From: an uncultured bacterium
GTDB taxonomy: Bacteria > Eisenbacteria > RBG-16-71-46 > CAIMUX01 > WJJG01
DNA: 64,000 nt
Direction of reading: 5' to 3'
NCBI GenBank assembly: GCA_964417675.1
Contig: CAYQJL010000282.1
Coordinates: 148,794-212,793 of the forward strand
Numbering within the stretch: the first letter of the stretch is position 1; each line of letters begins with the position of its first letter. A model generated the notes under the pieces. It worked only from the letters and a program-made list of their open reading frames with translations. It had not been told where the DNA came from and made no database searches. The translations under genes were made by a program, and so were the position numbers. Below, piece by piece: positions 5,881 to 27,074 of this stretch.

Positions 5881-5943
5881 CAGGGCTTGCCTCCCGTCAC
5901 CGAACTCGAGCAGCCGGACATGTGTGGCCCGCCCGGCACGCCC

Positions 5944-7320: not shown

Positions 7321-7322
7321 GT

Positions 7323-11910: not shown

Positions 11911-12074
11911 GCCTTGCTCCTTTCCGGATCCGTGCGTTCGATGCACCCTACCTGCCTACTGCCCCATACGTCGCACCCTTGCGCCGTATGGCTCCACACT
12001 GGGTATCGAGACGGTGCGACATCCTAGCCCAATCCAAACCTGGATACAACCGCCCCCCCCCCACAGGCGTCCCC

Positions 12075-12164
12075 GCCGATCCTGTTCCCGCGGGGGATCG
12101 TCCCTCCGATCCTGTTCCCGCGGGATCGGCCCGTGGATCCTGTTCCCCGGGAGATCGCCCCACG
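12075..12164. repeat. 30-bp x3 tandem repeat with internal dyad symmetry (REP-like) between the nucleotidyltransferase and metK
   Basis: Three tandem units ccgatcctgttcccgcgggggatcgtccct, ccgatcctgttcccgcgggatcggcccgtg and gatcctgttccccgggagatcgccccacgg. Each contains GATCC...CCCGCGGG...GGATC palindromic arms. Confidence 0.6.
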
Positions 12165-12257: not shown

Positions 12258-13262
12258 CTACGGCCCGCTGTTCAGGACGACCTCGGAGGAGTCGCCCACA
12301 TTGAGTCTCTGGAAGGTGCCCCGGACAATGGCGCTCTCCCCGATCACGGAACGCTCGAGCAACATGTCCTCCACGAGGGCACTCTCATTGACAATCGTAT
12401 CCCGCACGATGGCGCGCCGAATGACGGCTCCGTCGGCCACAGACACGTTGGGACCGAGGATCGACTTCTCGATCCGGGCCGTCGGCGCGATGAAGACCGG
12501 CGGCACCAGGGTCACACCGGGGATGGGCGCCGGCTGCGGAACCATACGCAGGAGATGCTGATTCGTATCAAGCAGCGTTTCGGGTTTGCCGCAGTCGAAC
12601 CAGCCGTCCACGGTCGACACTCGCATAGGCATGCCATTCTCCAGGAGGCGCTGCAGGGCATCGGTCAGCTGGAATTCCCCCTTCGTCCGCCGGTTCTCCT
12701 CGATCAGGACATTCAGGCTCGCAAACAGCGGCGCCGCATCCGGGAAGTAGTACAGTCCTACGATGGCCAGATTGCTGGGCGGATCCTGAGGCTTCTCCAC
12801 CAGGCGCAACACCTTCTCGCCCTGAACCTCCACGACGCCGAACCGGCGCGGATCCTCGACCTCCTTCACGCCGATGACCGCCTCCGCGCCGCTCAGGTAG
12901 GCGTCCCAATCCGGTTCCACGATCGTATCCCCCAACACGATCAAGATGGGGCCGGATCGCACCTGCTTCTCGGTCACGGCGATCGCATGTCCCAGGCCAA
13001 GGCGCTCTGTCTGTTCCACGACCTCGATCTGATCGCCATAGCGTTCGCGCAGATACTCCCGAATGCGCTGCCCCATGTAGCCCACCACCACGACGATCCG
13101 CTCTACACCGCGGTCGCGCAGTGCATCCAGAATGTGCCCCAGAATGGGTTTGCCGGCCACATTCACCAGGGCCTTCGGTACGGTGTGGGTCTGTGGGCGC
13201 AGGCGCGTGCCCACGCCTGCGGCGGGCACGATGGCTGTGGGTCGGGTCTGGGCCTCCGGCAT
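12258..13262 (-). CDS. sugar-phosphate nucleotidyltransferase (NTP_transferase domain plus C-terminal left-handed beta-helix hexapeptide repeats)
   Basis: The ORF-track entry 12258..13868 is fused through ptsI. The real start MPEAQTRPTAIVPAAGVGTRLRP is the ATG at 13262, which forms an ATGA overlap with the ptsI stop (verified). It carries the G-x-G-T-R-L nucleotidyltransferase motif and a C-terminal hexapeptide-repeat region. Confidence 0.85.
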   Translation of the reverse strand: MPEAQTRPTAIVPAAGVGTRLRPQTHTVPKALVNVAGKPILGHILDALRDRGVERIVVVVGYMGQRIREYLRERYGDQIEVVEQTERLGLGHAIAVTEKQVRSGPILIVLGDTIVEPDWDAYLSGAEAVIGVKEVEDPRRFGVVEVQGEKVLRLVEKPQDPPSNLAIVGLYYFPDAAPLFASLNVLIEENRRTKGEFQLTDALQRLLENGMPMRVSTVDGWFDCGKPETLLDTNQHLLRMVPQPAPIPGVTLVPPVFIAPTARIEKSILGPNVSVADGAVIRRAIVRDTIVNESALVEDMLLERSVIGESAIVRGTFQRLNVGDSSEVVLNSGP

Positions 13263-15118
13263 CAATCCTCTCCCCCTTCTGTTGACTCCTCGACAGCGGC
13301 CGTGTCGACCGGGGGGCCATTGACATGCCACTGGCAGGTCAGACGCCCGTCCCGGCTCTCGATCACGAACTGCGAATAGCTCTTCAGTCCCTCGCGTATC
13401 GCCGTCCGGACAGCGTGGGCATCCGGCGCCGCGAGGCAGGCCCGGGCCATCGCTTCCAGATCGGCATGTTTCACCTGGCCGAGCAGGGTCTTGATGGTCG
13501 CGACCATCGGAGGCACAACACTGAGTTCCTCGACACCCAATCCGACCAACAGGAGCGCCCCAAGCAGGTCGCTCGATAGCTCGCCGCACGACCCCACCGG
13601 TATGCCCTGCTGCTTTGCTCCCCAGATGGCGCCGTCGATCGCCCGGATGACGGCGGGATCGAAACCATCGTAGAGGTGACCGACACGGGCATTGCCCCGG
13701 TCCACGGCCAGGATGTATTGAATCAGGTCGTTCGAACCGATGCTGAAGAAGTCGGCTTCCTGGGCCAACCATTCGCTGACCAGCACGGCCGAGGGCACCT
13801 CGATCATGACTCCCACCTGTATGTCGGCGGCGATCAGGATCCCCTCGTCGCGCAGCTGATTCGCACACTCCTCGATGATGCCGCGCGCCTCGCGCACCTC
13901 GGCCAGTGTGCTGACCATGGGCAGCAGGATGCGCGGCTGCCCCCCCGCGGTGGCGCGCAGGATGGCGCGCAACTGGATGCGAAAGAGTGCCGGGTGCCGC
14001 AGACAGAAGCGGATGCCACGCAGTCCCAGAAAGGCATTCTCCTCACTCGGAACGCCCATCAGAAAGGCAACCTTATCGCCTCCCAGGTCGGTCGTACGAA
14101 TCGTCACAGGTGAGTGGGGAAATGCCGCCACAACCTTGGCATAGGCCGCATGCTGTTGGTTCTCGTCCGGGAAGGCGGTCGCCCCCATGAAGAAGAACTC
14201 GGTGCGGTAGAGGCCGATGCCATCCGCACCGGCCTGGACCGCCATCGCGGCGTCCTCCGGCCGCTCGATGTTTGCACGCACGGGAATGGTAACTCCATCG
14301 GAGGTAACCGGCGAACGATTGACATCCCCGGCGAGAGCCACCATGCGTGCCTGGCGGCGCTCAGCCTGCTCGACACGCTCCAGGTCGGACTTATCCGGCG
14401 AGACAATGACTTCACCGCGGTCACCATCCACGATCAGGTCGGCGCCGTCCGGAATCTCGGTCATGGCACCCACCACGCCGAGGACGGCCGGCAAGCCTCG
14501 TGAACGGGCAACGATGGTCACATGCGACGCCAGGGTTCCGCGCTCGGTCACGAAGGCCAGCGTGCGCTCCGAGTCGAGTCCAATCGTGTCGGCCGGGCCG
14601 AGCTCATCGGCCACGACCACCGATCCGGGGGCCATGTGCCCAACCGCAGACGGCTCCTCGCCGAGCAGGCGCGCCAGAATGCGTCGTTCGACGTCCCGGA
14701 TGTCCGCCGCGCGCCCTCGAAAGAGCTCACTTGGCAGCGATTCGAGGTAGCGCGCCTTGGCCGCCAGGACCGTGCGCACGGCATTGGCCGCATTCATGCG
14801 CTCGGACTTGACGGCCGCAACGATCTCGCGCGTCAATTCCCGATCCTGAAGGAGCATCTCATGAGAGGCGAGGATCTGGTCGGCGGGATCCTCGACCGGA
14901 CGGTCGAGGCGTTTGCGCACGCTGGTTACCTCCTCGCGCGCCTCGCGAAGACACCGGCGCAAGCGACGGATCTCCCGGGCCTCCCCCCCAGGCTCGACCC
15001 GGTGTGCCGGTACGACGAAGTCGTGCGATGCCAATATGCTCGCGTTACCGCGCACGATGCCGGCGGAAGCACCGACCCCGTACAACACGGTGCGCCTTGG
15101 TCTACGGGATCGCGGCAT
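13262..15118 (-). CDS. ptsI: phosphoenolpyruvate-protein phosphotransferase (PTS Enzyme I)
   Basis: 618 aa with N-terminal HPr-binding, central PEP-utilising and C-terminal TIM-barrel regions (FFSIGSNDLIQY, GELSSD). The ATG at 15118 is verified and has an upstream AAGGAAAGG. Confidence 0.95.
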   Translation of the reverse strand: MPRSRRPRRTVLYGVGASAGIVRGNASILASHDFVVPAHRVEPGGEAREIRRLRRCLREAREEVTSVRKRLDRPVEDPADQILASHEMLLQDRELTREIVAAVKSERMNAANAVRTVLAAKARYLESLPSELFRGRAADIRDVERRILARLLGEEPSAVGHMAPGSVVVADELGPADTIGLDSERTLAFVTERGTLASHVTIVARSRGLPAVLGVVGAMTEIPDGADLIVDGDRGEVIVSPDKSDLERVEQAERRQARMVALAGDVNRSPVTSDGVTIPVRANIERPEDAAMAVQAGADGIGLYRTEFFFMGATAFPDENQQHAAYAKVVAAFPHSPVTIRTTDLGGDKVAFLMGVPSEENAFLGLRGIRFCLRHPALFRIQLRAILRATAGGQPRILLPMVSTLAEVREARGIIEECANQLRDEGILIAADIQVGVMIEVPSAVLVSEWLAQEADFFSIGSNDLIQYILAVDRGNARVGHLYDGFDPAVIRAIDGAIWGAKQQGIPVGSCGELSSDLLGALLLVGLGVEELSVVPPMVATIKTLLGQVKHADLEAMARACLAAPDAHAVRTAIREGLKSYSQFVIESRDGRLTCQWHVNGPPVDTAAVEESTEGGED

Positions 15119-15181
15119 ACCGAACCTTTCCTTTCGCGGCTAGCGCCCTGCACCACCTGCCAGTCTCATCCCAGCCGCACG

Positions 15182-15282
15182 TCCCATCCCGGTCGCACGC
15201 GGGCCGCATGCCCGCCGCACATCCGTCCCCCATGCCCGCCGCACGTTCGGCCCATCCTGGTCGCACGCGGGCCGCATGCCCG
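15182..15282. repeat. 34-bp direct repeat, 2 copies 33 nt apart, in the ptsH-ptsI spacer
   Basis: cccatcccggtcgcacgcgggccgcatgcccgcc at 15182-15215 and cccatcctggtcgcacgcgggccgcatgcccgcc at 15249-15282. Confidence 0.55.
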
Positions 15283-15369
15283 CCAACTGCCTGCCCGGGT
15301 GTGGTGCCACACAGGCCGGCTGCGGGGCGTGGGACGGCCATACTGTGTGGCATGTTCACCCGCGACTAC

Positions 15370-15633
15370 CTACTCATCGAATTGTGCCTCAATCAGCGCG
15401 ACCAGGGCGCCGACGGCTTCCTGCTCATCAGGCCCTTCCGCTCGGATCGTCAGCTCCGTGCCGGTTTCGGCTGCCAGCATCATGACCCCCATGATGCTTT
15501 TCGCATTGACCGTCAGCTGACCGGTCGCCAGAAAGATCTCTGCGGCGAAACTGCTGGCCTTCTGAACCAACAGGGCAGCCGGCCGGGCATGGATACCCGG
15601 CACATTCGTTACCAGAACACGTGCTTCGTGCAC
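15370..15633 (-). CDS. ptsH: phosphocarrier protein HPr
   Basis: 87 aa from a GTG start. His15 sits in GIHARPA and Ser46 in NAKSIMGVM, both at canonical positions. Ser46 is the HprK target, and hprK is present in the same locus. Confidence 0.95.
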   Translation of the reverse strand: MHEARVLVTNVPGIHARPAALLVQKASSFAAEIFLATGQLTVNAKSIMGVMMLAAETGTELTIRAEGPDEQEAVGALVALIEAQFDE

Positions 15634-15789
15634 TCGGATCCTCTCATCCTATCAGGCATGCCACCTTCGTCCGCCGGCCGGGTCAATCAGACTCGACCCC
15701 GGCACCCCGACATCCCAGGAAACTCGCTCCTGCGAACCGGCATCCCGGCTGCAGATCCCGGGGAATCCTGACACAACAAACGGAGCAGT

Positions 15790-17640
15790 TCATTGCCAGG
15801 GTGTCAGGCCCAGTGCCAATACGAGCGCACACGCCCAACCCCACAAAAGGGCCCGCCCTCCAACGAGCAGGCCCAAGGGAAGGCCCAGGATAAACCAAAC
15901 CAGCCCATGCCGGAAGAACGACATGACCCCTGATTCTGTTCCCACGGCAAACGGACCCAAATGCCTGGCGAGCACCAAACCGACCCACAGAGCCAGGAGC
16001 GGAATCAGCAACGCCAGCGCCGTTGGCAACCAATCCCACACCCAACCACGCCCCCCTCGAACGCAGTCCCACCCCTTGCGCCAGCCCCAGCGGTAGAGAC
16101 CCCACCGCATCACGACATGAAACAGCAGGCTGGCGCCCACATAGATAAGGAGTCCCAGCCAGGGACGAAGAACCGGAAGAACCGTCAGGCCCAACACCAT
16201 GAGGCTCAGAACAGGGCGCACGCCGCCCCACAGAACGCGGTCACCCCACTGGGCCAGCACCGCACCGCCCACCGTCAGCAAGCGGGCCGGGGCCCGCGGA
16301 AGCGAGCCCCGACCCGCCTCGGTCAGGACACGCTCGATGCCACCCGCCAGGGCCGCGGCCAATACGGGCTGAGTGTTGTACGTTCCCGTCTGGGCAATGT
16401 CAAACTCGGTCTGGCTGCGAATGGCTTCCGCGCCCCGCAAGCGCTCCTCAGGAATGGCGCGCACGATCCCAAGGAAGCCAGCCCGCTGAAGGTAGGCGAA
16501 GTTGAACGATGCCTGCAAGAGCAGGAAGGCCCGCCATTGGCGAAGCCGTGGGAACGGTGCGCCCGGGCTTCCAGAATGCACCTGGAACGTCTCCCCGCCG
16601 GGCGGCTTGCCCAGCGCGCCTGCCTTGCCAGTTACGGAACTTGCTGCGCCTGGGGCCGTTGCCCCGTCCCCGGACCGGCCTCGCTGCCAGCGATGCTTCA
16701 GTCGCTTGACTTCGATTCCCAGGCCCAGGGCCCGCTGCCCGAGCACGCCGCCCAAGGCGAACAGCAGAAGGGCACCTAGCGGCGCCCCCCGCAACCCGCC
16801 GTGCAAATCCACCTGTCCCAAGCCGGCCAGGCCCCACCAGGTCTCTGCTGCCCCGATGCGGGATTCGAATCCCAAGGCAAGGTCACTGACCCACAGCAGA
16901 ATCATGGCAGGCATCAGCACCAGGCTCAGGAGCAGGAGCGGGCCCACCAGGGACGCCTCGATCCCTCCGCTGGCCAGGAGTCCCTCCACCCGCACACCGC
17001 TGGCGCATGTCGCCTCCGCGTACACGACGCGCTCGCGCCGCTCGTTGCGCCGGCGCAACCGATTCTCCGTCCACTCACCGACCGTGGCAGCCAGCAACGC
17101 CAACACCACCGCCACGCTTGCGTCCCAGGGAGTGGCCAGCGGGGAGAGCAAACACAACCAGGCGGTCCCGATCACAGCGGCCGGTCCCACGGCCGGCTGC
17201 CGGGACCCACCCATGGGGAGCAGACCGGGCCAGACCGCCTGAAGAGCGAAGCCCATGCCCAGCCCGGCGAGTGGATTGCCGAGGAGCACTCCGGCCATCG
17301 AAGCGGCCACCAGCGGCTGGTGCAGGAACAGAGGTCCCACTGCGCGTTCGTCCGCGGCCACGAGGGCGGCCCACATCGCGAGAAGCGCCCATCGGAGACC
17401 GCTGCCGAACTCGGCGCACAGTGCATGGAAGGTCACGCCGAATGCTCCACCGGACGCTCCCATTGCCGCGCTGACGACTGTCCCCGCGCACCTCTCGGCG
17501 GACACCCCGGCGGCCACCATCGCCCCCACGGCGATCACCGGGGGGAGCCATGCAAACCGAAGCCCGGTCCCGACAGCCGTCCGGCGGAACCCGGGAGCCG
17601 GTCCAGTGCCCGAGCCATCCGGTACGGTCGCCCCCCCCAC
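15790..17640 (-). CDS. PTS mannose/fructose/sorbose-family fused IIC-IID permease
   Basis: 616-aa polytopic membrane protein. The N-terminal half is IIC-like. The C-terminal half has the IID signature region WRAFLLLQASFNFAYLQRAGFLGIV (compare IID FWRSFFIQASWNYERMQNLGF). Its GTG start lies 9 nt after the GH57 stop. Confidence 0.75.
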   Translation of the reverse strand: MGGATVPDGSGTGPAPGFRRTAVGTGLRFAWLPPVIAVGAMVAAGVSAERCAGTVVSAAMGASGGAFGVTFHALCAEFGSGLRWALLAMWAALVAADERAVGPLFLHQPLVAASMAGVLLGNPLAGLGMGFALQAVWPGLLPMGGSRQPAVGPAAVIGTAWLCLLSPLATPWDASVAVVLALLAATVGEWTENRLRRRNERRERVVYAEATCASGVRVEGLLASGGIEASLVGPLLLLSLVLMPAMILLWVSDLALGFESRIGAAETWWGLAGLGQVDLHGGLRGAPLGALLLFALGGVLGQRALGLGIEVKRLKHRWQRGRSGDGATAPGAASSVTGKAGALGKPPGGETFQVHSGSPGAPFPRLRQWRAFLLLQASFNFAYLQRAGFLGIVRAIPEERLRGAEAIRSQTEFDIAQTGTYNTQPVLAAALAGGIERVLTEAGRGSLPRAPARLLTVGGAVLAQWGDRVLWGGVRPVLSLMVLGLTVLPVLRPWLGLLIYVGASLLFHVVMRWGLYRWGWRKGWDCVRGGRGWVWDWLPTALALLIPLLALWVGLVLARHLGPFAVGTESGVMSFFRHGLVWFILGLPLGLLVGGRALLWGWACALVLALGLTPWQ

Positions 17641-17649
17641 CGGTGCCTC

Positions 17650-20088
17650 CTAGCGCTTCGACTTCACCAAGCGGATCGGCCGCCTGCCTCGGGCCAACTC
17701 TCCCGCGGGCACACGCAAGTCGGGTTGGCCGTCACGCATCTCTGCCCGGTACCCGAACCGGTGCTCCCCACCCGGCACCAGGTGCAGCGGGAAATAGAAG
17801 AGAATCGCCAGCCCCTGATCATTGCTTTCAGCGCCCCCTTCCGACAGGCTCACCGTCCTGACCGGATAGCGGCAATAGGCGGCCGGCGCTGACAGAGAGA
17901 ACTCGATATGCCAGTTGGCCCATCCCTCGACCAGATGCAGGGAGTCCACGGCGGGGGCCTGTCCCACTGCCCCCAGATAGGCTGGCTTCGCACGCTGTCC
18001 GTTTACCACCAGGAAACGGTCATCCGCCTTGGCTGCCAGCAGATTGGCATGGTTCTCGATCGCCGCCCACGCACGCATCTCATGGTCCGACTGATTGCGG
18101 AAACGGTAGTCGACGCTATAGCCCCTTTCTCCAGACTGAACGCTGATCGTCTTCTCAACCTGCAGCGGCTGGCAGTTCCCCCCACGCCATAGCCCCCCGG
18201 TCCGTCGCAGCCGCACCTGGACCCGATCCTTCTCCTCGATCACGTCGGCCTCATACGGCTGGTTGACGAAATCACCGATCTCGTGCTGACTCTGCAGCAT
18301 CTGGCGGACCGGATCCGGTTCCTCATCGAAGAATCGATCGGTGAGCGCGGCCCGATCGTACCAATCATAGGTCAGCAGTTCACGCAGCCCGTCTTCCTTC
18401 GAGGTGATCCCCCCGTGAATGCTCGCGGCCTGTTCCTGGGAGGAATCCACCGCCGCCGCGTTCGGCGTCTCGGGGGCCGCATCGGCGCCCGCCGTGGATC
18501 GGGCCGCGTCCGGCGTCTCAGGGCCCGCGTTGGCGCCCGCCGCGAATCGGACCGCGTCCGGCGTTCCTGGGTCCGCATCGGCGCCCGACGCAGATCCGGC
18601 CGCGTCCGACCCCTCGGGCTCCAGCGAATCGGCCGCCTGCTCGGCGGCACTCCCGGTCACCTTGCGATGGTAGTATTCCTCGCGGCGACTGATCACATTG
18701 ATCAGATTGTAGCCCGCAGAACGGTCATCCCATTCCAGCAAGCGCCCACCGCCATTCGGATCGAGGAACAGCGCAAGCTGATCGTTCTCGAGGACAATCT
18801 CATTGTGGCCGTCGATGTCCAGATCCGCGGCTCGCATCGCCACCCAGGGCTCGCGACCATGCAGCCCGCGGGCCAACAGCGCCTCCCCCCTGATCAGCTC
18901 TGCGTAGACGCCATGGCGCAGATGCGGCAGGTACATTCCGCCGAACACACCGTGCCAGTACGCGCAATTGCATTGCGCCCGCCACAGGTGATCCCGGCAA
19001 TTCTCCCACGCCTCTCGCCGCATCGTGCTGCGGAAGGCGCGGCAGCGCCCGGAGGCCTCGAGCGCGCGCATGTGCATCCAACTGCTCTCCGGATAGCGCG
19101 CGAAGAAGTTTCGCCAGAAGCCACCCCGCACAAACAGGCGCCCCTCATCCTCGAGGCCCGCCTCGGACAGCGTCTCGCGCAGCTGCTCACAGACGGCCTG
19201 ATGATGCGCCGGCAATGACCAGTCGCCCATCTCGGCATAGGATCCGGTGGGCAGATAGGCCAGTCCAACCGGATCCTGTTCGCGCGCCTCCCGCGCGAAG
19301 GTCGTCGGCAGGATCGCGTCACCGGCGGCCTCGAGCGCGCTCAGAAAGCGATCGAGCCATCGCCGTTGGTAGACCAGCTTGTGCGTGCCGGGCCATGTTC
19401 CGAACTTCTCGCCGTCATCAGCATAGACGGCCAGTCCATCCCCACCGCCTGGGAAGGGGTTCCTCAAGAACCGGACCACTTCATCCGGATCCGCGAACGG
19501 AATCCGATAGCGCAAGCTCATCAGCGCCGGGAACAGGCGCAGGCTGCGGCCGGCGCTCTCGGTCAGGAAACTGCCACGAATCCGCTCCGCGCCCACGCCG
19601 ATCTGCTGGAGCTGCGTATCGTCAATCGGCAAGTACGAGATCCCGGCATCCACGAGATCCAGTGGCAAATCCGGTTCCCACACGCGTTCGGTCAGCCAGA
19701 TGCCACGGGCATCGACATCGAAGCGCGAGGTCAGGTACTCCCTCATCTTCTCAACTTGACCGCGCCGGTCCTCCGGCGTCAGCGCCGGCAGGACCGGTTC
19801 GTAGAACCCGCCCCCGAGGATCTCAAGACGGCCGCTTCGAACCGCACCCGCAATGCGATCAAGATACTCGGGATGGTTCTCCTCCAACCATTCCCACAGA
19901 CAACCGGAGTTGTGCAAGACCCACGGGATCGCGGGGTGACGTTCCATCACCTCGAGGAACGGCAGGTACGCCCTTTGATAGGCATCCTCGATCACATGAT
20001 CGAAGTTGCCCACCGGCTGATGATTGTGAACGCAGAAGACAAAACGGATCGGCGCCAATTCGACCTCCTTGTCGCGGACAGTCCCCAC
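17650..20088 (-). CDS. glycoside hydrolase family 57 (alpha-amylase / 4-alpha-glucanotransferase / branching-enzyme type) with C-terminal extension
   Basis: 812 aa with the GH57 conserved regions FVFCVHNHQP, WLTERVW, YADDGEKFGTWP and AQCNCAYWHGVFGG. A 48-bp x3.3 in-frame tandem repeat at 18453-18625 encodes a Pro/Ala/Asp-rich insert. Confidence 0.85.
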   Translation of the reverse strand: MGTVRDKEVELAPIRFVFCVHNHQPVGNFDHVIEDAYQRAYLPFLEVMERHPAIPWVLHNSGCLWEWLEENHPEYLDRIAGAVRSGRLEILGGGFYEPVLPALTPEDRRGQVEKMREYLTSRFDVDARGIWLTERVWEPDLPLDLVDAGISYLPIDDTQLQQIGVGAERIRGSFLTESAGRSLRLFPALMSLRYRIPFADPDEVVRFLRNPFPGGGDGLAVYADDGEKFGTWPGTHKLVYQRRWLDRFLSALEAAGDAILPTTFAREAREQDPVGLAYLPTGSYAEMGDWSLPAHHQAVCEQLRETLSEAGLEDEGRLFVRGGFWRNFFARYPESSWMHMRALEASGRCRAFRSTMRREAWENCRDHLWRAQCNCAYWHGVFGGMYLPHLRHGVYAELIRGEALLARGLHGREPWVAMRAADLDIDGHNEIVLENDQLALFLDPNGGGRLLEWDDRSAGYNLINVISRREEYYHRKVTGSAAEQAADSLEPEGSDAAGSASGADADPGTPDAVRFAAGANAGPETPDAARSTAGADAAPETPNAAAVDSSQEQAASIHGGITSKEDGLRELLTYDWYDRAALTDRFFDEEPDPVRQMLQSQHEIGDFVNQPYEADVIEEKDRVQVRLRRTGGLWRGGNCQPLQVEKTISVQSGERGYSVDYRFRNQSDHEMRAWAAIENHANLLAAKADDRFLVVNGQRAKPAYLGAVGQAPAVDSLHLVEGWANWHIEFSLSAPAAYCRYPVRTVSLSEGGAESNDQGLAILFYFPLHLVPGGEHRFGYRAEMRDGQPDLRVPAGELARGRRPIRLVKSKR

Positions 20089-20189
20089 GGATCACGCGCT
20101 GACCGGACCTGTGGGCCCGGACGGAGCCTTCCCGCCCCTCGTGGCTCGAGTACGAATCGTACAAGTCGAACCACAGATAGCGGACAACA

Positions 20190-20726
20190 TCAAGGCCGGA
20201 GTAATCTTCTCAAACCATCTCCGGCAACCCGCGGCGAACTGGGTAGATCCTGGGCGAACAAGAACAGGCCCCGGTCCAGTAGATCGAGGAGAGATGCTCG
20301 GTCCGTTTCGGTAAGGTGAAGGTAGGAGATGTACTCGATTGTACCCGGTCGATCATGAAGCCCGCCGAGGTTGACGCCACCTCCCGGCCGGAATCCGGCG
20401 TCATACAGCCGCGCAAGTGTATCCACACTCCGCAACAAGACGATCACCCGGCTGGCCTCCGTCCGTGCCGCCCCGGCCGCTGCCGACAGGAACTCCGCAA
20501 CCGCCTCGATGCCCACCGACACCTCCGGAGGGGCCGCCGAGAGGAAGGCCTCCCGCTCCCAGTCATCGCCCGCAACTTCATCATCCACAATCAGGTACCC
20601 GCGCGGATCGAGCGCCTGCGCCCATCCATAGACAACTTGCCCGTGCAACAGGCGGTCATCGACGCGCACCAGCGCAAAGCGGGTCGCTCGATCCCAATGA
20701 CCGGCCGCTTCATCCAAGTTGCACAT
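20190..20726 (-). CDS. PTS mannose-family IIB component
   Basis: FALVRVDDRLLHGQVVYGW matches the IIB-Man phospho-histidine motif (IVLARIDDRLIHGQV). The N-terminal 17 nt overlap the IIA stop, so the true start may lie slightly downstream. Confidence 0.82.
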   Translation of the reverse strand: MCNLDEAAGHWDRATRFALVRVDDRLLHGQVVYGWAQALDPRGYLIVDDEVAGDDWEREAFLSAAPPEVSVGIEAVAEFLSAAAGAARTEASRVIVLLRSVDTLARLYDAGFRPGGGVNLGGLHDRPGTIEYISYLHLTETDRASLLDLLDRGLFLFAQDLPSSPRVAGDGLRRLLRP

Positions 20727-21129
20727 CGTTCCATCCCCGACACTCTATACTCTCGCGGCCCCGCCGGCGCAGGCGTTCGCACAGCTCGGCTCGGGTAACC
20801 CGCGAGCGATGATACAGAAACTCGATCAGCATGGGGAGATTGACGCCGCAGGCCACCAGCAATTCGGGATGTTCCAGGCCGATCCGATGGCAGGCATGAC
20901 CGCAACTCCCCGCTGCCAGATCCACGAAGATCACCGCGGGACTGCCGGGCGGATCGCGGCGCGCCAGGGCCTGGTCAAGGGTCTCCACCAGCGCCCTGTG
21001 AGAGACCCCGAGATTCGACACACACATGAGGTTCTCTTGCGGACCCAGGATCGCCTCGGCGGTCCGCTTGAGTTCCTCCCCCAGCCGGCCATGCGTGACA
21101 AGGACCCCGAGCATGGACGCCCCGCTCAC
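20710..21129 (-). CDS. PTS mannose-family IIA component
   Basis: GVLVTHGRLGEELKRTAEAILGPQEN... and AVIFVDLAAGSCGHA match IIA-Man, with the phospho-His in the GxLVTHG motif. The GTG start overlaps the hprK stop by GTGA, and an alternative ATG lies at 21114. Confidence 0.82.
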   Translation of the reverse strand: MSGASMLGVLVTHGRLGEELKRTAEAILGPQENLMCVSNLGVSHRALVETLDQALARRDPPGSPAVIFVDLAAGSCGHACHRIGLEHPELLVACGVNLPMLIEFLYHRSRVTRAELCERLRRRGRESIECRGWNDVQLG

Positions 21130-22094
21130 TCCTGATCCCCCTCGGCCAGGCGAGACAGCGTACGCTTGCGCCGGATGGTCTCGAGCAGATTCTCACTGAA
21201 GCGGGCTGCCGGATGATATCCATAGGCTTTGACCAGGTAGTTCAGCGCGATCGTCTCGGCGATGACCGTGATGTTCTTTCCCGGGAAGATCGGAATCGCA
21301 ATCAACGGAATCTCGGTGCCAAGAATCGTGGTTCTCTGTTCCTCGATTCCCAGGCGTTCATAGCTCTCGTCGCTGCTCCAATCCCGGAGATTGACTTCGA
21401 CTTCGAGACGCTTGAACGCCCGGATGGCCCGAATCCCGAAGATGCTTTGCACGTCGATCACCCCGATGCCGCGAATCTCCATGCAGTGGCGCAGCAGCTC
21501 GTTGCCCGAGCCAATCAGAATGTTGGGATAGCGGCGCCGAATCGTGACGATATCGTCGGCGACCAGACGGTGCCCACGTTCGACCAGGTCGAGCGCGGTT
21601 TCGCTCTTTCCGATCGCGCTGCGGCCCGTGAAGAGCAGTCCCACACCGTAGACATCGACCAGCGAACCATGCACCCGTGTTCGCGGGGCAAACGCCTCCT
21701 GCAGGAACGCGGTCAGCTCATGCTGAAAGTGCGTGGTATCCATCTCGGTACCCAGAAGGGGCACCTCATTCTGCGAGGCAATCCGGGGCATGTCGGGCGG
21801 CGGATCGAGGCCTTTGGTCACAACGATACAGGGAATCGCGAACCCCATGATCTGGGAGAGGACGGTTCCGCGCCGGTTCTCATCCAAGGTACCAAGGTAG
21901 CGGATCTCAGTCTCGCCAATGATCTGCAGGCGGTCCCAGAGGAAGTTCTCCATGAAGCCGGTCAGCGCCAGCTGCGGACGGTTGATGTCACTCGTAATCA
22001 GGCGGCTGCGGGAGTGAAGGCTCTGGCTGAGCAACCGCAGTCCCAATCGCTCACGGGTCTGTTCAAAGAACTCGGCTACGGTCATTCCGACCAT
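21126..22094 (-). CDS. hprK: HPr kinase/phosphorylase
   Basis: Trimmed to MVGMTVAEFFEQ... It has the P-loop GRSAIGKSETALDLV and the HprK signature region LIGSGNELLRHCMEIRGIGVIDV. Confidence 0.92.
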   Translation of the reverse strand: MVGMTVAEFFEQTRERLGLRLLSQSLHSRSRLITSDINRPQLALTGFMENFLWDRLQIIGETEIRYLGTLDENRRGTVLSQIMGFAIPCIVVTKGLDPPPDMPRIASQNEVPLLGTEMDTTHFQHELTAFLQEAFAPRTRVHGSLVDVYGVGLLFTGRSAIGKSETALDLVERGHRLVADDIVTIRRRYPNILIGSGNELLRHCMEIRGIGVIDVQSIFGIRAIRAFKRLEVEVNLRDWSSDESYERLGIEEQRTTILGTEIPLIAIPIFPGKNITVIAETIALNYLVKAYGYHPAARFSENLLETIRRKRTLSRLAEGDQE

Positions 22095-22297
22095 GTGAAC
22101 CCTCACCCCTCCAGTAGATCCCCTCCACTCCGTTCGGCAACCGCTCTCAGAAACCTCGTCGAACCACGCCGCAGCACCCCGCGCCCTCTTCTTCTCCCGC
22201 TCGCACCCTGAGAGCAAGGGCGCCGGGAGATCGCCGCACCGCACGAGTCAAGCGCCTCGATGACCACGCCGCCTCGATGACCACGCCGCCTCGATGA

Positions 22298-22882
22298 TCA
22301 GGGCGCCTCGATGAGGCAATAATTGCCATCTTCGCGCAAGTGGATCAAGTTGACCTTGTTGGTGCCCTTGTTGCGGAAAAGCAAGAAATCGCGATCGGAT
22401 GCATGCAGCGCCTCGATGGCCGACTCCACCGAGACGGGATCCGGGTGGAAGGAGTCATCCCGCACGACCACCGGCGCGAAATCCTCTTCCGCGAACTCCA
22501 GCCCCAGCTCTTCCTCGGCCGCAGTCGGTTCATCCTCGTCCACCGGCTCCGGAACAGCCGGGATCGTCGGCTGATCCTTGAGGCTGCGTCTGTTTTTCCG
22601 ATCCCGCTGGCGCGCCATGATCCGTTTGATCTGGCGCTCGATCCGGTCCACCACCTTGTCCACCGACGTTGTCATCTCGTCCGACTCACCGCGGCTCACG
22701 ATCTCGGTGCCCCGGGCACGAACAGAAATCTCCGCTATCTGACGGTACTTCTCGGTCGTGAGGACGATGTGCACCTCCTCTTGCTTCCCGAGATAGCGGC
22801 CCAGCCGGTCGAGCCGCTTCTCCAGATAGTCGCGCAGTTCGGGGGTCATGTCGAAATGACGGGCGGTGGTGATGATGTCCAT
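22298..22882 (-). CDS. hpf: ribosome hibernation promoting factor (long form)
   Basis: MDIITTARHFDMTPELRDYLEKRL... is a canonical HPF/RaiA N-domain, followed by a linker and a C-terminal dimerisation domain. A strong SD AAGGAGGAG lies 6 nt before the verified ATG at 22882. Confidence 0.93.
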   Translation of the reverse strand: MDIITTARHFDMTPELRDYLEKRLDRLGRYLGKQEEVHIVLTTEKYRQIAEISVRARGTEIVSRGESDEMTTSVDKVVDRIERQIKRIMARQRDRKNRRSLKDQPTIPAVPEPVDEDEPTAAEEELGLEFAEEDFAPVVVRDDSFHPDPVSVESAIEALHASDRDFLLFRNKGTNKVNLIHLREDGNYCLIEAP

Positions 22883-22938
22883 TCTCTCCTCCTTGCTAAC
22901 CCGCGATCGGCCCGGTTGGGGACGATCATCGTTGGGTG

Positions 22939-24312
22939 TCAAGCACCCCGACGAAAGGACGCCTTGGGGATCCTGAGCTGATCCCGATACTTGGCCACGG
23001 TCCGCCGCGAGATGAGGATCCCCTCGGCCAGCAGGGCCGTGGTCAGATCCTGATCTGTAAGCGGTGCCCGGGGCGGCTCATCCCCAATCAACTCCACAAT
23101 GCGCTGCCGGATGTACGCGGGAGAGCGATCCATTCCCGCCACAGCCGGCAGCCCCTTGGAGAAAAAGAAACGCAAGGGAAACAGTCCCCTTGGTGTCTGA
23201 ACGTACTTCCCCCTGACGGCCCGGGCAATGGTAGACTCATGCAAGCCCAATCTACCCGCTACATGCCTGTACACCAATGGCTTCAGCCCGGAAGAACCCT
23301 CTCGAAAGAAAGCCGCCTGTTCCTCCACGATGAGTCGCATGAGCCCCACCAATGTTCGCCGGCGAGCCGCCAGGCTCCCAAGGAACCATCTGGCGGAGGA
23401 CATGTGGCGGTGCACGAAAGCGCGGGTGGCGTTCTGCCTTGAATGCAACAGCGCCGGGGGCGGGGGCACCAGCCGAACCGCCGGCAGGTGCTCTTCATTG
23501 GCCATCACTTCCCAGCTGTCCCCCGCCTCGACCACCGTGAGATCCGGCAGAATGCTGTGCGCCTGGGTCGCTGGGACGCCCCGCAAGGGGCGGGGCGTCA
23601 TTCGGGCGATGCGCTCGGCCGAACGCTGGACATCTTCCACCGTTGCGCCGAGTTTGCGCGCCATGAGTTCGAAGTTGCGCTGGGCCAACAGCGGCAGCAG
23701 CCCTTTCTTGAGAAGGCGACGAGTCAGCGGATCGGCCTCGCCCCGCTCCTCGAGCTGAACAAGCAGGCATTCGGTGACATCCCGGGCCCCCACGCCCACG
23801 GGACACAAACGCAGGATCACCTGACGTACATCCTCCACCGACCTGCGCGCCACGGACAGCTCGCGGGCGATCTTGGCCACGGAAACGGCCAGGTAGCCGC
23901 GGCCGTCCAAACACCCAATCAAATATTCGGCAATGCCGGCGCCGTCGGCCACTTCCGTTTGCAGCCGGTACTGCTGGAGAAGATCCCAGCGCCAGGAGGC
24001 GCTCGCCTTGCGGGGCCGCTCACCATACCCGCGCCTCTCCTGCCCCCAGGGCTCAACCGGAACGTCCCCATCTCCCGGAGACGCTTCCTCGGACGCCTCC
24101 CTGGGCCCCTCGGCCGCCGTCTGGCCATCCACGAGCGCCCCTTCCGCCGGAGCGGGATCGGAATCCAGGAAGGGATGCTCGGCCAGAACCTCACGCATCT
24201 GCGCCGATAGCTCCGCGACGGGAGCCTGCAAGATCGCCAGGGACTGCTGCATCTGCCTCGACAGAACAAGCTGCTGGCGTCCGCTTACTTCAAGCTCGGC
24301 TCTTATCTCCAT
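22939..24312 (-). CDS. rpoN: RNA polymerase sigma-54 factor
   Basis: The C-terminal RpoN box ARRTVAKYRDQLRIP and the N-terminal Gln-rich region I (LVLSRQMQQSLAILQ) identify it. Trimmed to the MEIRAELEV ATG at 24312, which was verified. Confidence 0.95.
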   Translation of the reverse strand: MEIRAELEVSGRQQLVLSRQMQQSLAILQAPVAELSAQMREVLAEHPFLDSDPAPAEGALVDGQTAAEGPREASEEASPGDGDVPVEPWGQERRGYGERPRKASASWRWDLLQQYRLQTEVADGAGIAEYLIGCLDGRGYLAVSVAKIARELSVARRSVEDVRQVILRLCPVGVGARDVTECLLVQLEERGEADPLTRRLLKKGLLPLLAQRNFELMARKLGATVEDVQRSAERIARMTPRPLRGVPATQAHSILPDLTVVEAGDSWEVMANEEHLPAVRLVPPPPALLHSRQNATRAFVHRHMSSARWFLGSLAARRRTLVGLMRLIVEEQAAFFREGSSGLKPLVYRHVAGRLGLHESTIARAVRGKYVQTPRGLFPLRFFFSKGLPAVAGMDRSPAYIRQRIVELIGDEPPRAPLTDQDLTTALLAEGILISRRTVAKYRDQLRIPKASFRRGA

Positions 24313-24437
24313 TCGACATGGCTTCCCCCGGTGCGTGGGTGAATCGGCATCCGGCCCTGCCAGTGGCGCTGGCAGCGCCGGGTTCCTCCTCCATGACGGC
24401 GTGACTCCATCCAGAGGCATGAAGATGAAGCCAGGCG

Positions 24438-25184
24438 CTACAGCCGAAAATCCTTCCCGAGATAGATTTCGCGGGCCTCCGGGTTGTCAGCCAACTCCCG
24501 GGCATTGCCCTCAATTCGAATGCGACCCTCGTACATCAGATACACCCGATCGGTGGCCATCAATGTCTCGCGGACACTGTGATCCGTGATCAGGATCCCC
24601 AGACCCCGGGCTTTCAGACGCAAGATGTTCTCTTGGATCTCTGCCACGGCAATCGGGTCGATTCCCACAAAAGGTTCATCCAGGAGCATGAACGACGGCC
24701 TGGTCACCAGCGCGCGCGTGATCTCGACCCGGCGCCGTTCCCCACCCGACAGATTGTAGCCGCGGCGGGAGGCGATGTGGGTGATGTCGAGCTCCTCGAG
24801 CAATTGCGCACAGCGTTCATCGCGTTCTCGGCTGGGAAGAGCGAGGGTTTCCAGAACGGCCATGATGTTGTCGCGCACGGTCATGCGCCGGAAGATACTG
24901 GGCTCTTGCGAGAGGTAGCCGATGCCCATCCGCGCCCGCTTGTGCATCGGCAGGCCGGTGATCTGCTTGCCGTCCAGCAGAATCTCTCCGGAGGAGGGCC
25001 GCAGCAGACCCGTGATCATATAGAAGGTGGTCGTCTTGCCCGCACCGTTGGGGCCGAGCAGACCCACGACCTCACCCTGCCGCACCGACAAGCTCACACC
25101 ACCCACGACCTGGAACTTGCCGTAGAAGCGCACCAGATTCCTGGTCTCGAGTACACGCCCGGAGGGCACCGAACTGGATCGCAT
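24438..25184 (-). CDS. lptB: LPS export ABC transporter ATP-binding protein
   Basis: GLLGPNGAGKTTTFYMITGL Walker A, LSGGERRRVEI signature and LLDEPF Walker B. It sits directly upstream of rpoN as in the conserved lptCAB-rpoN-hpf arrangement. The start is uncertain: the longest ORF reaches 25313 through a 30-bp x3 repeat (25191-25280) that encodes PEPTRP repeats. Confidence 0.88.
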   Translation of the reverse strand: MRSSSVPSGRVLETRNLVRFYGKFQVVGGVSLSVRQGEVVGLLGPNGAGKTTTFYMITGLLRPSSGEILLDGKQITGLPMHKRARMGIGYLSQEPSIFRRMTVRDNIMAVLETLALPSRERDERCAQLLEELDITHIASRRGYNLSGGERRRVEITRALVTRPSFMLLDEPFVGIDPIAVAEIQENILRLKARGLGILITDHSVRETLMATDRVYLMYEGRIRIEGNARELADNPEAREIYLGKDFRL

Positions 25185-25296
25185 CCGAGAGGATGCTTCC
25201 TGCCCGGATGGCTCCGGATGGGATGCTCCCGGCCGAGTTGGCTCCGGATGGGATGCTTCCGGCCGAGTTGGCTCAACAGACGACTTCTGCACTGGC

Positions 25297-25827: not shown

Positions 25828-25854
25828 CAGGAGGAACCCTCCACGGAGCCCCCC

Positions 25855-26020
25855 CCCGAGAAAAGCCGCCCGACAGAGAGAACCCCCACGGAGAAAACCC
25901 CCACGGAGAAAACCCCCACGAAGAAACCCTCTTCGCAGACACCCTCCATCGAGGGGCCCTCCACGAAGAAACCATCCACGAAGAGGCCCTTCATGAAGGG
26001 GCCCTCTGCAAAGAGGCGTT
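25855..26020. repeat. 15-bp periodic tandem repeat, about 11 units
   Basis: Units are cccccacggagaaaa, ccccacggagaaaac, ccccacgaagaaacc, ... ctccacgaagaaacc, atccacgaagaggcc, cttcatgaaggggcc. It lies between the acyltransferase stop (26166) and the lptC-like signal peptide. If translated on the minus strand it would give (R)GGFL pentapeptide repeats. Confidence 0.75.
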
Positions 26021-26165
26021 TCCCCGAGACAACCTCCCCCGAGATGCCTTAGCCATTTAGGTGCCAAAGCCTTCATACATCCCCGTCCGTTTGCGGCCCT
26101 ACCGTGCCTGTGCGCCTGCTCTCCAGATACACCCTCCCGGGACCGGGCGGTTTCCCGGGCCCTGG

Positions 26166-27071: not shown

Positions 27072-27074
27072 GCG

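Follow-up and report, generated by a model that had tools for sequence, protein, structure and literature searches.

An rpoN cluster that also carries hprK (ptsK), a mannose-class IIA gene, ptsH and ptsI has been described (Comas et al., 2008; PMC2405797). In Desulfovibrio vulgaris this cluster includes a putative mannose-class transporter, seen as a hint of transport, and IIB, IIC, and IID have been proposed as ancestral members of the rpoN cluster (Comas et al., 2008; PMC2405797). A mannose-type phosphotransferase system (PTS) beside the sigma-54 gene is an already known arrangement. A link between the PTS and glycogen also has a precedent, the regulation of E. coli glycogen phosphorylase by HPr (PMC11046441).

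The window, the whole 64,000-nucleotide stretch of DNA analysed here, contains a version of this arrangement in which a GH57 gene stands among the transporter genes. Ten genes lie on the minus strand in the order rpoN, hpf, hprK, IIA-Man, IIB-Man, GH57, fused IIC-IID, ptsH, ptsI, and sugar-1-phosphate nucleotidyltransferase. Start codons of rpoN, hpf, hprK, GH57, and the nucleotidyltransferase gene were revised from gene calls on L026, a contig that is 99.9% identical.

12258 to 13262, minus strand: sugar-1-phosphate nucleotidyltransferase with a left-handed beta-helix tail, 334 aa (PF00483, E = 2e-33)
13262 to 15118, minus strand: ptsI (Enzyme I), 618 aa (TIGR01417)
15119 to 15369, minus strand: 251-nt ptsH-ptsI spacer packed with 16-37-nt direct repeats
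15370 to 15633, minus strand: ptsH (HPr) with His15 and Ser46, 87 aa (PF00381, E = 1.5e-30)
15790 to 17640, minus strand: fused mannose-class EIIC-EIID, 616 aa, polytopic membrane protein (PF03609 then PF03613)
17650 to 20058, minus strand: GH57 4-alpha-glucanotransferase-like protein, predicted cytoplasmic, 802 aa (PF03065, PF09094, PF09095; ORF reaches 20088)
18455 to 18608, minus strand: 48-nt x 3.2 in-frame tandem repeat, a low-complexity linker insert within GH57 (TRF)
20190 to 20726, minus strand: mannose-class EIIB, 178 aa (PF03830, E = 1e-30)
20710 to 21129, minus strand: mannose-class EIIA, 139 aa (PF03610, E = 2.5e-10)
21126 to 22094, minus strand: hprK, full-length HPr(Ser) kinase/phosphorylase, 322 aa (TIGR00679; start from the L026 gene call)
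22253 to 22314, minus strand: 17-nt x 3.6 tandem repeat copying the hpf 3' end and stop (TRF)
22298 to 22882, minus strand: hpf, long-form ribosome hibernation factor, 194 aa (PF02482, S30AE, and C-terminal PF16321; start from L026)
22939 to 24312, minus strand: rpoN (sigma-54), 457 aa (Sigma54_AID/CBD/DBD; start from L026; ORF reaches 24420)
24438 to 30865, minus strand: upstream block of lptB, lptC, lipid A acyltransferase, kdsD, kdsA, and pyrG (Pfam; housekeeping synteny)

Pfam and NCBIfam profiles bear out the identities and order of all ten genes as given in an earlier reading made from the letters alone (the sequence-only reading). The absence of EIIA-Ntr and RapZ that it reported also holds, as the stretch from rpoN to the nucleotidyltransferase gene contains no ptsN and no rapZ, and scanned ORFs of at least 200 aa elsewhere in the window include none with a PTS_EIIA_2 or RapZ domain. 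The lptB to pyrG block upstream stays with the locus in all relatives.

Judged by its predicted proteins, the PTS of the locus is formally complete, comprising Enzyme I, HPr (His15 and Ser46), HprK, IIA, IIB, and IIC-IID. No phosphorylation site is lost, the GH57 catalytic Glu/Asp pair is intact, and phosphorylation sites and GH57 catalytic motifs are kept in each locus examined. RpoN has the three sigma-54 domains (Pfam) and scores 338 bits against TIGR02395 (cutoff 277). HprK (TIGR00679, 346 bits, cutoff 240) contains both the P-loop GRSAIGKSE and the signature MEIRGIGVI (as defined in PMC2937029). HPr conserves the motifs GIHARPA and NAKSIMGVM, which bear out the earlier statement that an HPr with both His15 and Ser46 occurs alongside HprK. 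Enzyme I scores 497 bits against TIGR01417 (cutoff 342), and its active-site His lies within GTLASHVTIVARS.

The predicted Enzyme II is a divergent branch of the mannose class (TC 4.A.6). All of its parts pass Pfam cutoffs, and the earlier assignments stand: IIA reaches 40.9 bits (PF03610, cutoff 21.4), IIB 107.5 bits (PF03830, cutoff 27), and IIC-IID 48.1 bits for EII-Sor (PF03609, cutoff 26.3) followed by 29.6 bits for EIID-AGA (PF03613, cutoff 25), the last two matches each spanning only the N-terminal half of the model. NCBIfam subfamily cutoffs are missed by IIA (TIGR00824, 54.6 versus 98), IIB (TIGR00854, 63.6 versus 164), IIC (TIGR00822, 19.8 versus 340), and IID (TIGR00828, 30.8 versus 293). 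The phosphorylatable His of the IIA THG motif is found in the window, as it is in every locus with an aligned IIA, and the IIB active-site His motif VDDRLLHGQV is invariant across all loci. The 616-aa protein, with about 11-13 hydrophobic segments, is a divergent yet real ManY-ManZ fusion. In the PDB its family profile matches chains of ManZ (1.4e-8) and ManY (1e-4) only, in colinear order, and in a Foldseek search of the PDB with a weak model (pLDDT 52.8) the best 14 matches are all Man-PTS IIC or IID chains. IIC-IID sequences that are only 36-52% identical still share about 80 invariant columns and the motifs that mark ManY and ManZ, which argues for purifying selection on a membrane function. 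IIB, IIC, and IID change fastest, with 39-55% identity where HprK, the best conserved of the block's proteins, is 94% identical (L004/L006). This fast change, together with the low NCBIfam scores, could mean that their role is altered or non-transport.

The GH57 protein is a predicted 4-alpha-glucanotransferase and a close homologue of the Thermococcus litoralis enzyme (PDB 1K1W, E = 2e-131). Translation would begin at a TTG at 20058, preceded by AAGGAGG, according to the L026 gene call. The domains PF03065, PF09094, and PF09095 follow in order as catalytic barrel, helical middle domain, and C-terminal beta-sandwich, and the 1K1W match spans all three, the beta-sandwich being weak and fragmentary (45.8 bits at query positions 542-664 and 4.5 bits at 728-769). 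The five conserved GH57 regions (HNHQP, GGFYEPVL, WLTERVWEP, YADDGEKFG, and AYWHGVFGG) align to 1K1W, and all of them, including WLTERVWEP with the nucleophile Glu and YADDGEKFG with the acid/base Asp, are kept in all PTS-linked copies. Neither a signal peptide nor a hydrophobic N-terminus was found in the window protein; the GH57 proteins of relatives are 707-758 aa long. An alpha-glucan-active GH57 enzyme physically within the permease genes, as the sequence-only reading had it, is what this homology and position indicate. Characterised members of this GH57 subfamily have been named both amylase and glucanotransferase in the literature.

For the nucleotidyltransferase, with its NTP_transferase domain and hexapeptide tail, the profiles establish the superfamily alone, that is, a predicted sugar-1-phosphate nucleotidyltransferase with a left-handed beta-helix tail. 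The protein falls below NCBIfam equivalog cutoffs (rmlA_long, TIGR01208, the best, 231 versus 320; man1P_GTase, 110 versus 440). Its best PDB match is human GMPPB (7D72, 5e-26, full-length), followed by the broad-specificity Sulfolobus ST0452.

Tiny gaps or overlaps had been claimed throughout the string, and are found at about half of the window junctions. The IIA start overlaps the hprK stop as GTGA and 9 nt separate GH57 from IIC-IID, both as first reported, and IIA and IIB overlap by 17 nt. The nucleotidyltransferase start does overlap the ptsI stop, but by 1 nt, as TGATG, and not as the ATGA first read there. Four spacers are long: hpf-hprK (about 203 nt), IIB-GH57 (about 131 nt), IIC-IID-ptsH (156 nt), and ptsH-ptsI (251 nt), and these junctions of 131-251 nt may possibly hold internal promoters. 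Short tandem repeats occur in two of them, hpf-hprK and ptsH-ptsI, the latter measuring 6-55 nt in relatives. Imperfect repeats are also seen at the hpf stop in L004/L006.

At least 15 independent contigs, named Candidatus Eisenbacteria MAGs among them, carry the block in the shared order kdsA...rpoN-hpf-hprK-IIA-IIB-GH57-IIC/IID-ptsH-ptsI-(PGI/PMI)-nucleotidyltransferase-metK, which is kept down to 34-45% protein identity. Start/stop overlaps of 4 nt run along hprK to the nucleotidyltransferase gene in L003, L011, L013, L023, and L027. This recurrence, often with such overlaps, points to an operon. The idea of one module gains this much, that the comparative data favour a single co-transcribed string, while the physiology proposed for it stays conjectural. 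In lineages whose GH57 is only 42-49% identical to that of the window, the gene keeps its place between IIB and IIC and overlaps each neighbour by 4 nt, and at least 25 GH57 clusters (90% identity) pair with a Man-IIB match by equal contig size. L022 and L023 contain an otherwise identical block lacking GH57, so that GH57 is an optional, lineage-specific accessory and the novelty first claimed for the module was overstated in this respect. The orthologous GH57 genes of KSB1 are not linked to a PTS, and two related uncultured lineages, L021 and L025, have hpf-hprK-IIA-IIB with no IIC or IID nearby. In relatives ptsI is followed first by a PGI/PMI gene and then by the nucleotidyltransferase gene, the latter overlapping its upstream gene in every lineage; the PGI/PMI link is thus the older one, and the novelty first ascribed to the nucleotidyltransferase coupling was overstated. 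All relatives share synteny from pyrG to miaB, with metK, ftsK, and lolA as neighbours; the 30-kb surroundings as a whole are housekeeping synteny frozen in place, so that gene order is not by itself proof of a functional tie. The claim that the module was undescribed holds in part: the rpoN-linked PTS backbone with a mannose-class permease has been known since 2008, while the insertion of GH57, a starch/glycogen-remodelling enzyme, amid transporter genes appears undescribed, if only moderately surprising.

The explanation we favour, held with confidence slightly better than even, is that the locus is the Candidatus Eisenbacteria-lineage form of an ancient rpoN-linked PTS cluster, an operon coupling hexose, HPr, glucan, and NDP-sugar metabolism. 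A complete, divergent mannose-class Enzyme II (IIA, IIB, and fused IIC-IID) would have been retained, a cytoplasmic GH57 4-alpha-glucanotransferase recruited between IIB and IIC, and a GMPPB-like sugar-1-phosphate nucleotidyltransferase translationally coupled to ptsI, with hprK through the nucleotidyltransferase gene forming a single operon. Phosphoryl groups would pass from PEP along Enzyme I, HPr (His15), IIA, and IIB to a hexose entering through IIC-IID, with glucose or mannose as the likeliest sugar. HprK would place Ser46-P on HPr and so report carbon and energy status. The co-expressed 4-alpha-glucanotransferase would disproportionate intracellular maltodextrin or glycogen chains, yielding glucose, and the nucleotidyltransferase may channel hexose-1-phosphate into NDP-sugar. 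In this way the operon would tie the turnover of alpha-glucan and the supply of activated sugars to HPr signalling and the phosphorylation of hexose. Co-transcription and the substrate are inferred, as is any connection, in metabolism or in regulation, of GH57 and the nucleotidyltransferase with the PTS; a functional tie between GH57 and the PTS is plausible. A closer bond, with Enzyme II and GH57 as a dedicated pair, seems quite unlikely; either the PTS would phosphorylate glucan-derived glucose in place of glucokinase (hexose-1-phosphate then passing to NDP-sugar via the coupled nucleotidyltransferase), or HPr, IIA, or IIB would directly control GH57. A point against the explanation we favour is that the known substrates of the mannose-class PTS are for the most part monosaccharides, on which a 4-alpha-glucanotransferase does not act.

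The chain may instead be regulatory only, mainly signalling carbon status, with IIB and IIC-IID as a sensor or phosphoryl sink, not a bulk transporter, and GH57 and the nucleotidyltransferase as regulated targets or co-regulated genes. The backbone is that of a known regulatory cluster (PMC2405797; Brucella, PMC2937029), the alpha- and beta-proteobacterial phosphorelay of hprK, EIIA(Man), and NPr/HPr works without a permease, and the permease-free loci of L021 and L025 fit this picture. So do the high conservation of hprK and ptsH relative to IIB, IIC, and IID and the position of the Enzyme II parts far under NCBIfam transporter cutoffs. The invariant columns and ManY/ManZ motifs of such divergent IIC-IID sequences speak against it, however, as does the invariant active-site His of IIB, and the D. 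vulgaris permease was itself taken as a hint of transport (Comas et al., PMC2405797); we consider a regulatory-only chain unlikely.

Similarly unlikely, in our judgement, is the accidental insertion of GH57 and the nucleotidyltransferase into stable housekeeping synteny (pyrG...lolA), with read-through transcription as their sole relation to the PTS. The pyrG-miaB synteny of all relatives and the clearly PTS-unrelated neighbours metK, ftsK, and lolA would accord with such passengers, as would the blocks of L022 and L023 and the KSB1 orthologues. Yet GH57 splits IIB from IIC, genes for subunits of one complex, and its place and flanking 4-nt overlaps persist at 42-49% GH57 identity; the constant overlap of the nucleotidyltransferase gene with whichever gene precedes it (PGI/PMI in relatives) also speaks against accident, and the partners are all hexose-phosphate enzymes, coherent with a hexose PTS. 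Transcription of the PTS and GH57 genes from an RpoN-dependent promoter, the sigma-54-linked control once suggested, has no more than the adjacency of rpoN in its favour and is highly improbable. A scan for TGGCAC-N5-TTGCW gave 26 matches against 26.2 expected, none of them upstream of a locus gene start and all of those in the locus inside coding sequence. The aligned hpf-hprK spacers of five relatives share just the ribosome-binding site and start codon, and the block contains no enhancer-binding protein gene.

The locus supports the proposal that the rpoN-linked PTS originally had a mannose-class permease, a complete version having been kept by vertical descent in a phylum distant from the Proteobacteria, and the 616-aa family is a real IIC-IID fusion overlooked by present subfamily models. 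Among related lineages the cluster takes four forms (soluble components alone; permease added; permease genes fused; GH57 inserted), a series that could serve to ask how a transport PTS becomes purely regulatory. If functional, the GH57 insertion would be a new case of a PTS genetically wired to alpha-glucan metabolism, complementing the known interaction of HPr with glycogen phosphorylase in E. coli. A true Enzyme II-GH57 pairing would mean that, in an uncultured phylum of didermic bacteria, PTS signalling is hard-wired to the turnover of storage glucan in a way not known before.

Compared with the ancestral rpoN cluster of Comas et al. (PMC2405797), whose order is rpoN-hpf-[ptsN]-hprK/ptsK-[rapZ]-IIA(Man)-ptsH/ptsO-ptsI, the window locus has the same run of rpoN-hpf followed by hprK, mannose-class IIA, HPr, and Enzyme I on one strand, and it shares IIB, IIC, and IID genes inside the cluster with the D. 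vulgaris variant. It differs in lacking ptsN and rapZ, in the fusion of IIC and IID, in the GH57 gene separating IIB from IIC, in the nucleotidyltransferase coupled to ptsI (with PGI/PMI before it in relatives), and in its host, which belongs to an uncultured FCB-type phylum and is not a proteobacterium. The alpha-proteobacterial hprK-ptsM(EIIA-Man-like)-ptsO operon of Brucella and Sinorhizobium (PMC2937029) is similar in the order of hprK, EIIA(Man), and HPr/NPr and in HPr-type Ser phosphorylation, and S-adenosylhomocysteine hydrolase lies downstream in L011, L013, and L022, like Brucella sahH. Alpha-proteobacterial HprK is N-terminally truncated and accompanied by neither IIB nor a permease, whereas the window HprK is full-length (322 aa) and its Enzyme II is predicted to be complete. 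The T. litoralis GH57 enzyme (1K1W) has the same three domains, five conserved regions, Glu/Asp pair, and cytoplasmic location. In contrast to that enzyme and the MalQ-type maltodextrin pathway, the window enzyme is bacterial, has a repeat-rich linker insert, and is encoded in PTS permease genes, not beside an ABC maltodextrin transporter or phosphorylase. The ManXYZ systems of E. coli and Listeria (TC 4.A.6; PDB 6K1H, 7VLX) share the four functional modules, the IIA and IIB His sites, and recognisable ManY/ManZ hallmark motifs with the window locus, in which IIC and IID are very distant (20-31 bits versus NCBIfam cutoffs of about 280-365) and form one chain, while IIA and IIB are separate proteins.

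The locus lies within an uninterrupted run of genes on the minus strand, extending from 30865 down to 5944 in a window with a G+C content of 62-69%. Pfam and NCBIfam profiles identify an upstream part comprising, in order, pyrG, kdsA, kdsD, a lipid A acyltransferase gene, lptC, and lptB, a central part comprising rpoN, hpf, hprK, EIIA(Man), EIIB(Man), GH57, a 616-aa membrane protein, ptsH, ptsI, and a sugar-1-phosphate nucleotidyltransferase, and a downstream part comprising metK, ftsK, lolA, and a MiaB/RimO-type radical-SAM enzyme. The remainder of the window is occupied by housekeeping genes, including polA, bamD, kdsB, rng, lgt, rodA, pbp2, mreCB, thrS, pfk, hslU, and a Bmp-type ABC system. 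Amid these are genes for a 544-aa protein that ends in an HNH endonuclease domain (47208-48842) and a 533-aa protein with an FGE-sulfatase domain (42732-44333). Neither ptsN nor rapZ was found among the scanned window ORFs of at least 200 aa. The ten central genes listed by the sequence-only reading are all present, with their order and coordinates upheld and their start codons corrected from gene calls on L026, a contig of another sample that is 99.9% identical to the window. The first four starts below are the L026 calls.

24312, minus strand, start of rpoN
22882, minus strand, start of hpf
22094, minus strand, start of hprK
20058, minus strand, start of GH57, a TTG codon after AAGGAGG
13262, minus strand, ATG start of the nucleotidyltransferase gene, with one base common to the ptsI stop (TGATG)

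The window retains all residues by which the phosphorelay is defined, and each of them is kept in every related locus. These include the phosphorylation-site histidines of IIA (within LVTHG) and IIB (within VDDRLLHGQV), both His15 (GIHARPA) and Ser46 (NAKSIMGVM) of HPr, and the active-site histidine of EI (within GTLASHVTIVARS). The Walker A loop (GRSAIGKSE), LVADD motif, and signature MEIRGIGVI of HprK, which is the full-length two-domain form, are likewise kept throughout. The 616-aa membrane protein contains EII-Sor (residues 85-193) and EIID-AGA (residues 369-527) domains and about 11-13 hydrophobic segments, and its scores fall well short of the NCBIfam subfamily cutoffs. A profile of this protein and six homologues, compared with the whole PDB, matches only ManZ (1.4e-8) and ManY (1e-4) chains, IIC then IID. 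Although family members are only 36-52% identical, about 80 alignment columns do not vary, among them those of the ManZ-like motifs NTQP..AAAL.G and LAQWGDR..WG..RP. The top 14 Foldseek matches of a low-confidence AlphaFold2 model (7-sequence alignment, pLDDT 52.8), taken as weak corroboration only, are Man-PTS IIC or IID chains. Given these profile and structural matches and the invariant columns and motifs, the protein is a true, constrained, and very divergent IIC-IID fusion.

The GH57 protein matches the crystal-structure sequence of the Thermococcus litoralis 4-alpha-glucanotransferase (1K1W) with an E-value of 2e-131; for the catalytic domain the score against 4-alpha-glucanotransferase is 393 bits, with approximately 55% identity as estimated from the alignment. 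Five of five GH57 conserved regions are kept, as are the nucleophile Glu (WLTERVWEP) and the acid/base Asp (YADDGEKFG). The catalytic domain begins at residue 14 and a hydrophobic leader is absent, and the enzyme is therefore predicted to be cytoplasmic. A role as a phospho-alpha-glucosidase on a PTS product, suggested by weak GH38N matches through analogy with MngB/GH38, was rejected because the catalytic domain aligns nearly end to end with a true 4-alpha-glucanotransferase and all five subfamily motifs are present. The nucleotidyltransferase consists of an NTP_transferase domain and a left-handed beta-helix tail. Its best structural relatives are human GMPPB, matched over the full length at 5e-26, and ST0452, a Sulfolobus enzyme of broad specificity; it falls below every NCBIfam equivalog cutoff, and its assignment stops short of sugar specificity.

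Tight spacing across the locus, as originally proposed, holds for hprK/IIA (a GTGA overlap), IIA/IIB (-17 nt), GH57/IIC-IID (a 9-nt gap), and ptsI/nucleotidyltransferase (-1 nt), but not for the spacers hpf-hprK (approximately 203 nt), IIB-GH57 (approximately 131 nt), IIC-IID-ptsH (156 nt), and ptsH-ptsI (251 nt). Spacers are far shorter in relatives, and several of those in the window genome have been lengthened by short tandem duplications. Tandem repeats in and around the locus are as follows.

22253-22314, 17-nt unit x 3.6, a copy of the 3' end and stop of hpf where the hpf-hprK spacer begins
18455-18608, 48-nt unit x 3.2, in frame within the inter-domain linker of the window copy of GH57
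15163-15295, units of 16-37 nt occupying the ptsH-ptsI spacer
12071-12161, 28-nt unit x 3, directly downstream of the nucleotidyltransferase gene

No repeats were reported in the IIB-GH57 and IIC-IID-ptsH spacers. Imperfect repeats of the hpf stop region also occur in two related loci, L004 and L006. L026, the closest contig, differs from the window by only 2 point mismatches in 16 kb and by two indels. One, of 33 nt, lies in the linker between the IIC and IID domains (627 aa in L026, 616 aa in the window), and the other, of 15 nt, lies in the stretch from rpoN to kdsD, above window coordinate 24312. Indel-type length change thus outpaces substitution here, and with so few mismatches L026 is usable for start codons and indels and uninformative on selection (dN/dS).

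Through gene-context look-ups and scans of sequence collections, the block was found again on at least 15 independent contigs, with the conserved order kdsA-kdsD-(lpxL)-lptC-lptB-rpoN-hpf-hprK-IIA-IIB-GH57-IIC/IID-ptsH-ptsI-nucleotidyltransferase-metK-ftsK-lolA. The named genomes among these matches are Candidatus Eisenbacteria MAGs (L008-L010 and L013), and close GH57 and IIB matches with an organism name are likewise Eisenbacteria. Equal-sized contigs in the GH57 and IIB match lists suggest that the two genes share a contig in at least 25 distinct clusters at 90% identity. Few proteins belong to the fused IIC-IID subfamily: a word-indexed search over 5.8 billion proteins returned 7. When 1.84 billion representatives were searched exhaustively with a profile, 32 matched at E <= 1e-30, about two dozen of them as full-length fusions; with the threshold relaxed to 1e-10 and 1e-3 the count rose to 83 and 824, those outside the core group being ordinary IIC proteins of approximately 230 aa and other fusions of approximately 500 aa. 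In five related loci (L003, L011, L013, L023, and L027) the genes from hprK to the nucleotidyltransferase are packed with 4-nt overlaps or gaps of less than 20 nt, a probable operon signature with translational coupling. Rates inside the block are strongly unequal, HprK being 94% identical to its L004 and L006 counterparts vs. approximately 53-55% for IIB, IIC, and IID; against L004 the remaining values are 88% (nucleotidyltransferase), 84% (HPr), 76% (EI), 69% (GH57), 55% (IID), 54% (IIB), and 53% (IIC).

Several related loci carry variant forms of the cluster. In L011 and L013 the GH57 proteins are 42-49% identical to the window copy, IIC and IID are encoded separately, and the gene pairs IIB/GH57, GH57/IIC, and IIC/IID each overlap by 4 nt. 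L022 and L023 have the pyrG-to-metK block without GH57, with IIC and IID unfused in L022 and as a 504-aa fusion in L023. All four loci contain, between ptsI and the nucleotidyltransferase gene, a bact-PGI_C gene, usually with 4-nt overlaps; among known structures, its product matches the PGI/PMI of Pyrobaculum (1TZB) best.

L011, 13599-14603, bact-PGI_C gene
L013, 14083-15096, bact-PGI_C gene
L022, 13799-14869, bact-PGI_C gene
L023, 13155-14222, bact-PGI_C gene

This gene is missing between ptsI and the nucleotidyltransferase gene in the window's clade. In a rough NJ tree built from eight proteins joined end to end, L022 falls outside, L023 clusters with L011 and L013, and the window belongs to a crown clade with GH57, the IIC-IID fusion, and no PGI. 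As judged from these variants, the Man-class EII is an older feature of the cluster, and so is the pair of PGI/PMI and nucleotidyltransferase genes that follows ptsI. GH57 is a later, lineage-restricted insertion, stably kept since, and PGI/PMI has been lost from its post-ptsI position in the window's clade. Since L023, fused and without GH57, clusters with the unfused, GH57-bearing L011 and L013, GH57 presence and fusion are incongruent on the tree, and no number of gain or loss events is claimed. L024 (8585-13816) encodes IIA, IIB, a fused IIC-IID (569 aa), a fused HPr-EI (648 aa), and MobB away from rpoN, and the fusion therefore recurs outside the Eisenbacteria block and is not unique to the window's clade. 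On L011, a 2.0-Mb contig, many genes of this locus (443-7513), among them kdsA, rpoN, hpf, and hprK, are broken by what seem to be frameshifts, more likely through long-read assembly errors left uncorrected than through pseudogenization.

The reading we favor, with somewhat better than even confidence, is that hprK through the nucleotidyltransferase gene forms one operon, in which a working hexose PTS is co-expressed with alpha-glucan and NDP-sugar enzymes. The phosphoryl group would pass from PEP through EI, HPr, IIA, and IIB to a hexose entering via IIC-IID, with HprK contributing a Ser46 regulatory layer. Co-expressed GH57 would disproportionate maltodextrin or glycogen in the cytoplasm, and the nucleotidyltransferase would form NDP-sugars. 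Gene identities, intact sites, and a conserved, compact order are what the sequences show, whereas we infer co-transcription, the substrate, and any metabolic or regulatory coupling of these two enzymes to the PTS; the observations of the sequence-only reading stand, with the corrected starts and the spacer caveat, and its interpretation is partly supported.

A mainly regulatory PTS, with EII acting as a sensor, seems unlikely. A PTS of that kind may exist in L021 (7264-9480) and L025 (7271-9480), which come from another uncultured lineage and have T9SS Por_Secre_tail genes near; these loci have only a short-form hpf followed by hprK, IIA(Man), and IIB(Man), with IIC and IID absent nearby, suggesting a soluble IIA-IIB regulatory relay, and the window locus has the constrained IIC-IID as well. 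We also doubt that GH57 and the nucleotidyltransferase are passengers with no functional tie to the PTS, held in place by frozen synteny. The shared gene order does extend into flanking housekeeping genes, and a KSB1 orthologue of GH57 is not PTS-linked; the pools on which the co-located enzymes work are in every case those of hexose, hexose-phosphate, or alpha-1,4-glucan, which is coherent with a glucose/mannose-type PTS. The sigma-54-linked control once proposed for this rpoN-containing locus is very improbable and lacks sequence support. A scan with the model TGGCAC-N5-TTGCW, allowing up to 2 mismatches, gave 26 matches vs. 26.2 expected, none usefully placed. The scan for sigma-70 promoter-like sites found 0, terminator-like sites occur at chance frequency only, within genes, and the aligned hpf-hprK spacers of five relatives conserve only the ribosome-binding site and start codon. 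An Rfam scan of the whole window gave no match.

The ancestral rpoN cluster has been reconstructed with ptsK (hprK), IIA(Man), ptsH/ptsO, and ptsI ("EI-R"), and the rpoN cluster of Desulfovibrio vulgaris includes a putative mannose-class transporter (Comas, Gonzalez-Candelas and Zuniga, 2008; PMC2405797). The premise of the sequence-only reading, that this neighborhood lacks a permease in known organisms and that a Man-type PTS in it is undescribed, was too strong. The alpha-proteobacterial hprK-ptsM-ptsO genes form a regulatory relay without a permease and are co-transcribed with sahH (PMC2937029), an arrangement echoed by metK-ahcY immediately downstream of the block in three relatives.

L011, 17496-18122, S-adenosylhomocysteine hydrolase gene after metK
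L013, 17454-18442, S-adenosylhomocysteine hydrolase gene after metK
L022, 17038-18294, S-adenosylhomocysteine hydrolase gene after metK

By this analogy, the link of the PTS block to S-adenosylhomocysteine hydrolase may be a very old synteny. Regulation of glycogen phosphorylase by HPr in E. coli provides a precedent for a link between the PTS and glycogen metabolism (PMC11046441). A literature search returned no paper linking Eisenbacteria to the PTS and no relevant paper linking GH57 to a PTS operon. Four features appear to be undescribed: the GH57 gene between IIB and IIC, the IIC-IID fusion in an rpoN-cluster context, the PGI/PMI and nucleotidyltransferase tail after ptsI, and the conservation of the whole arrangement in a phylum that is uncultured and bears LPS. 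Specialists in the PTS or in alpha-glucans would find the inserted GH57 gene and the naturally occurring range of cluster forms of interest, if not startling, and the locus is a variant form of an already described cluster rather than a novel class of system.
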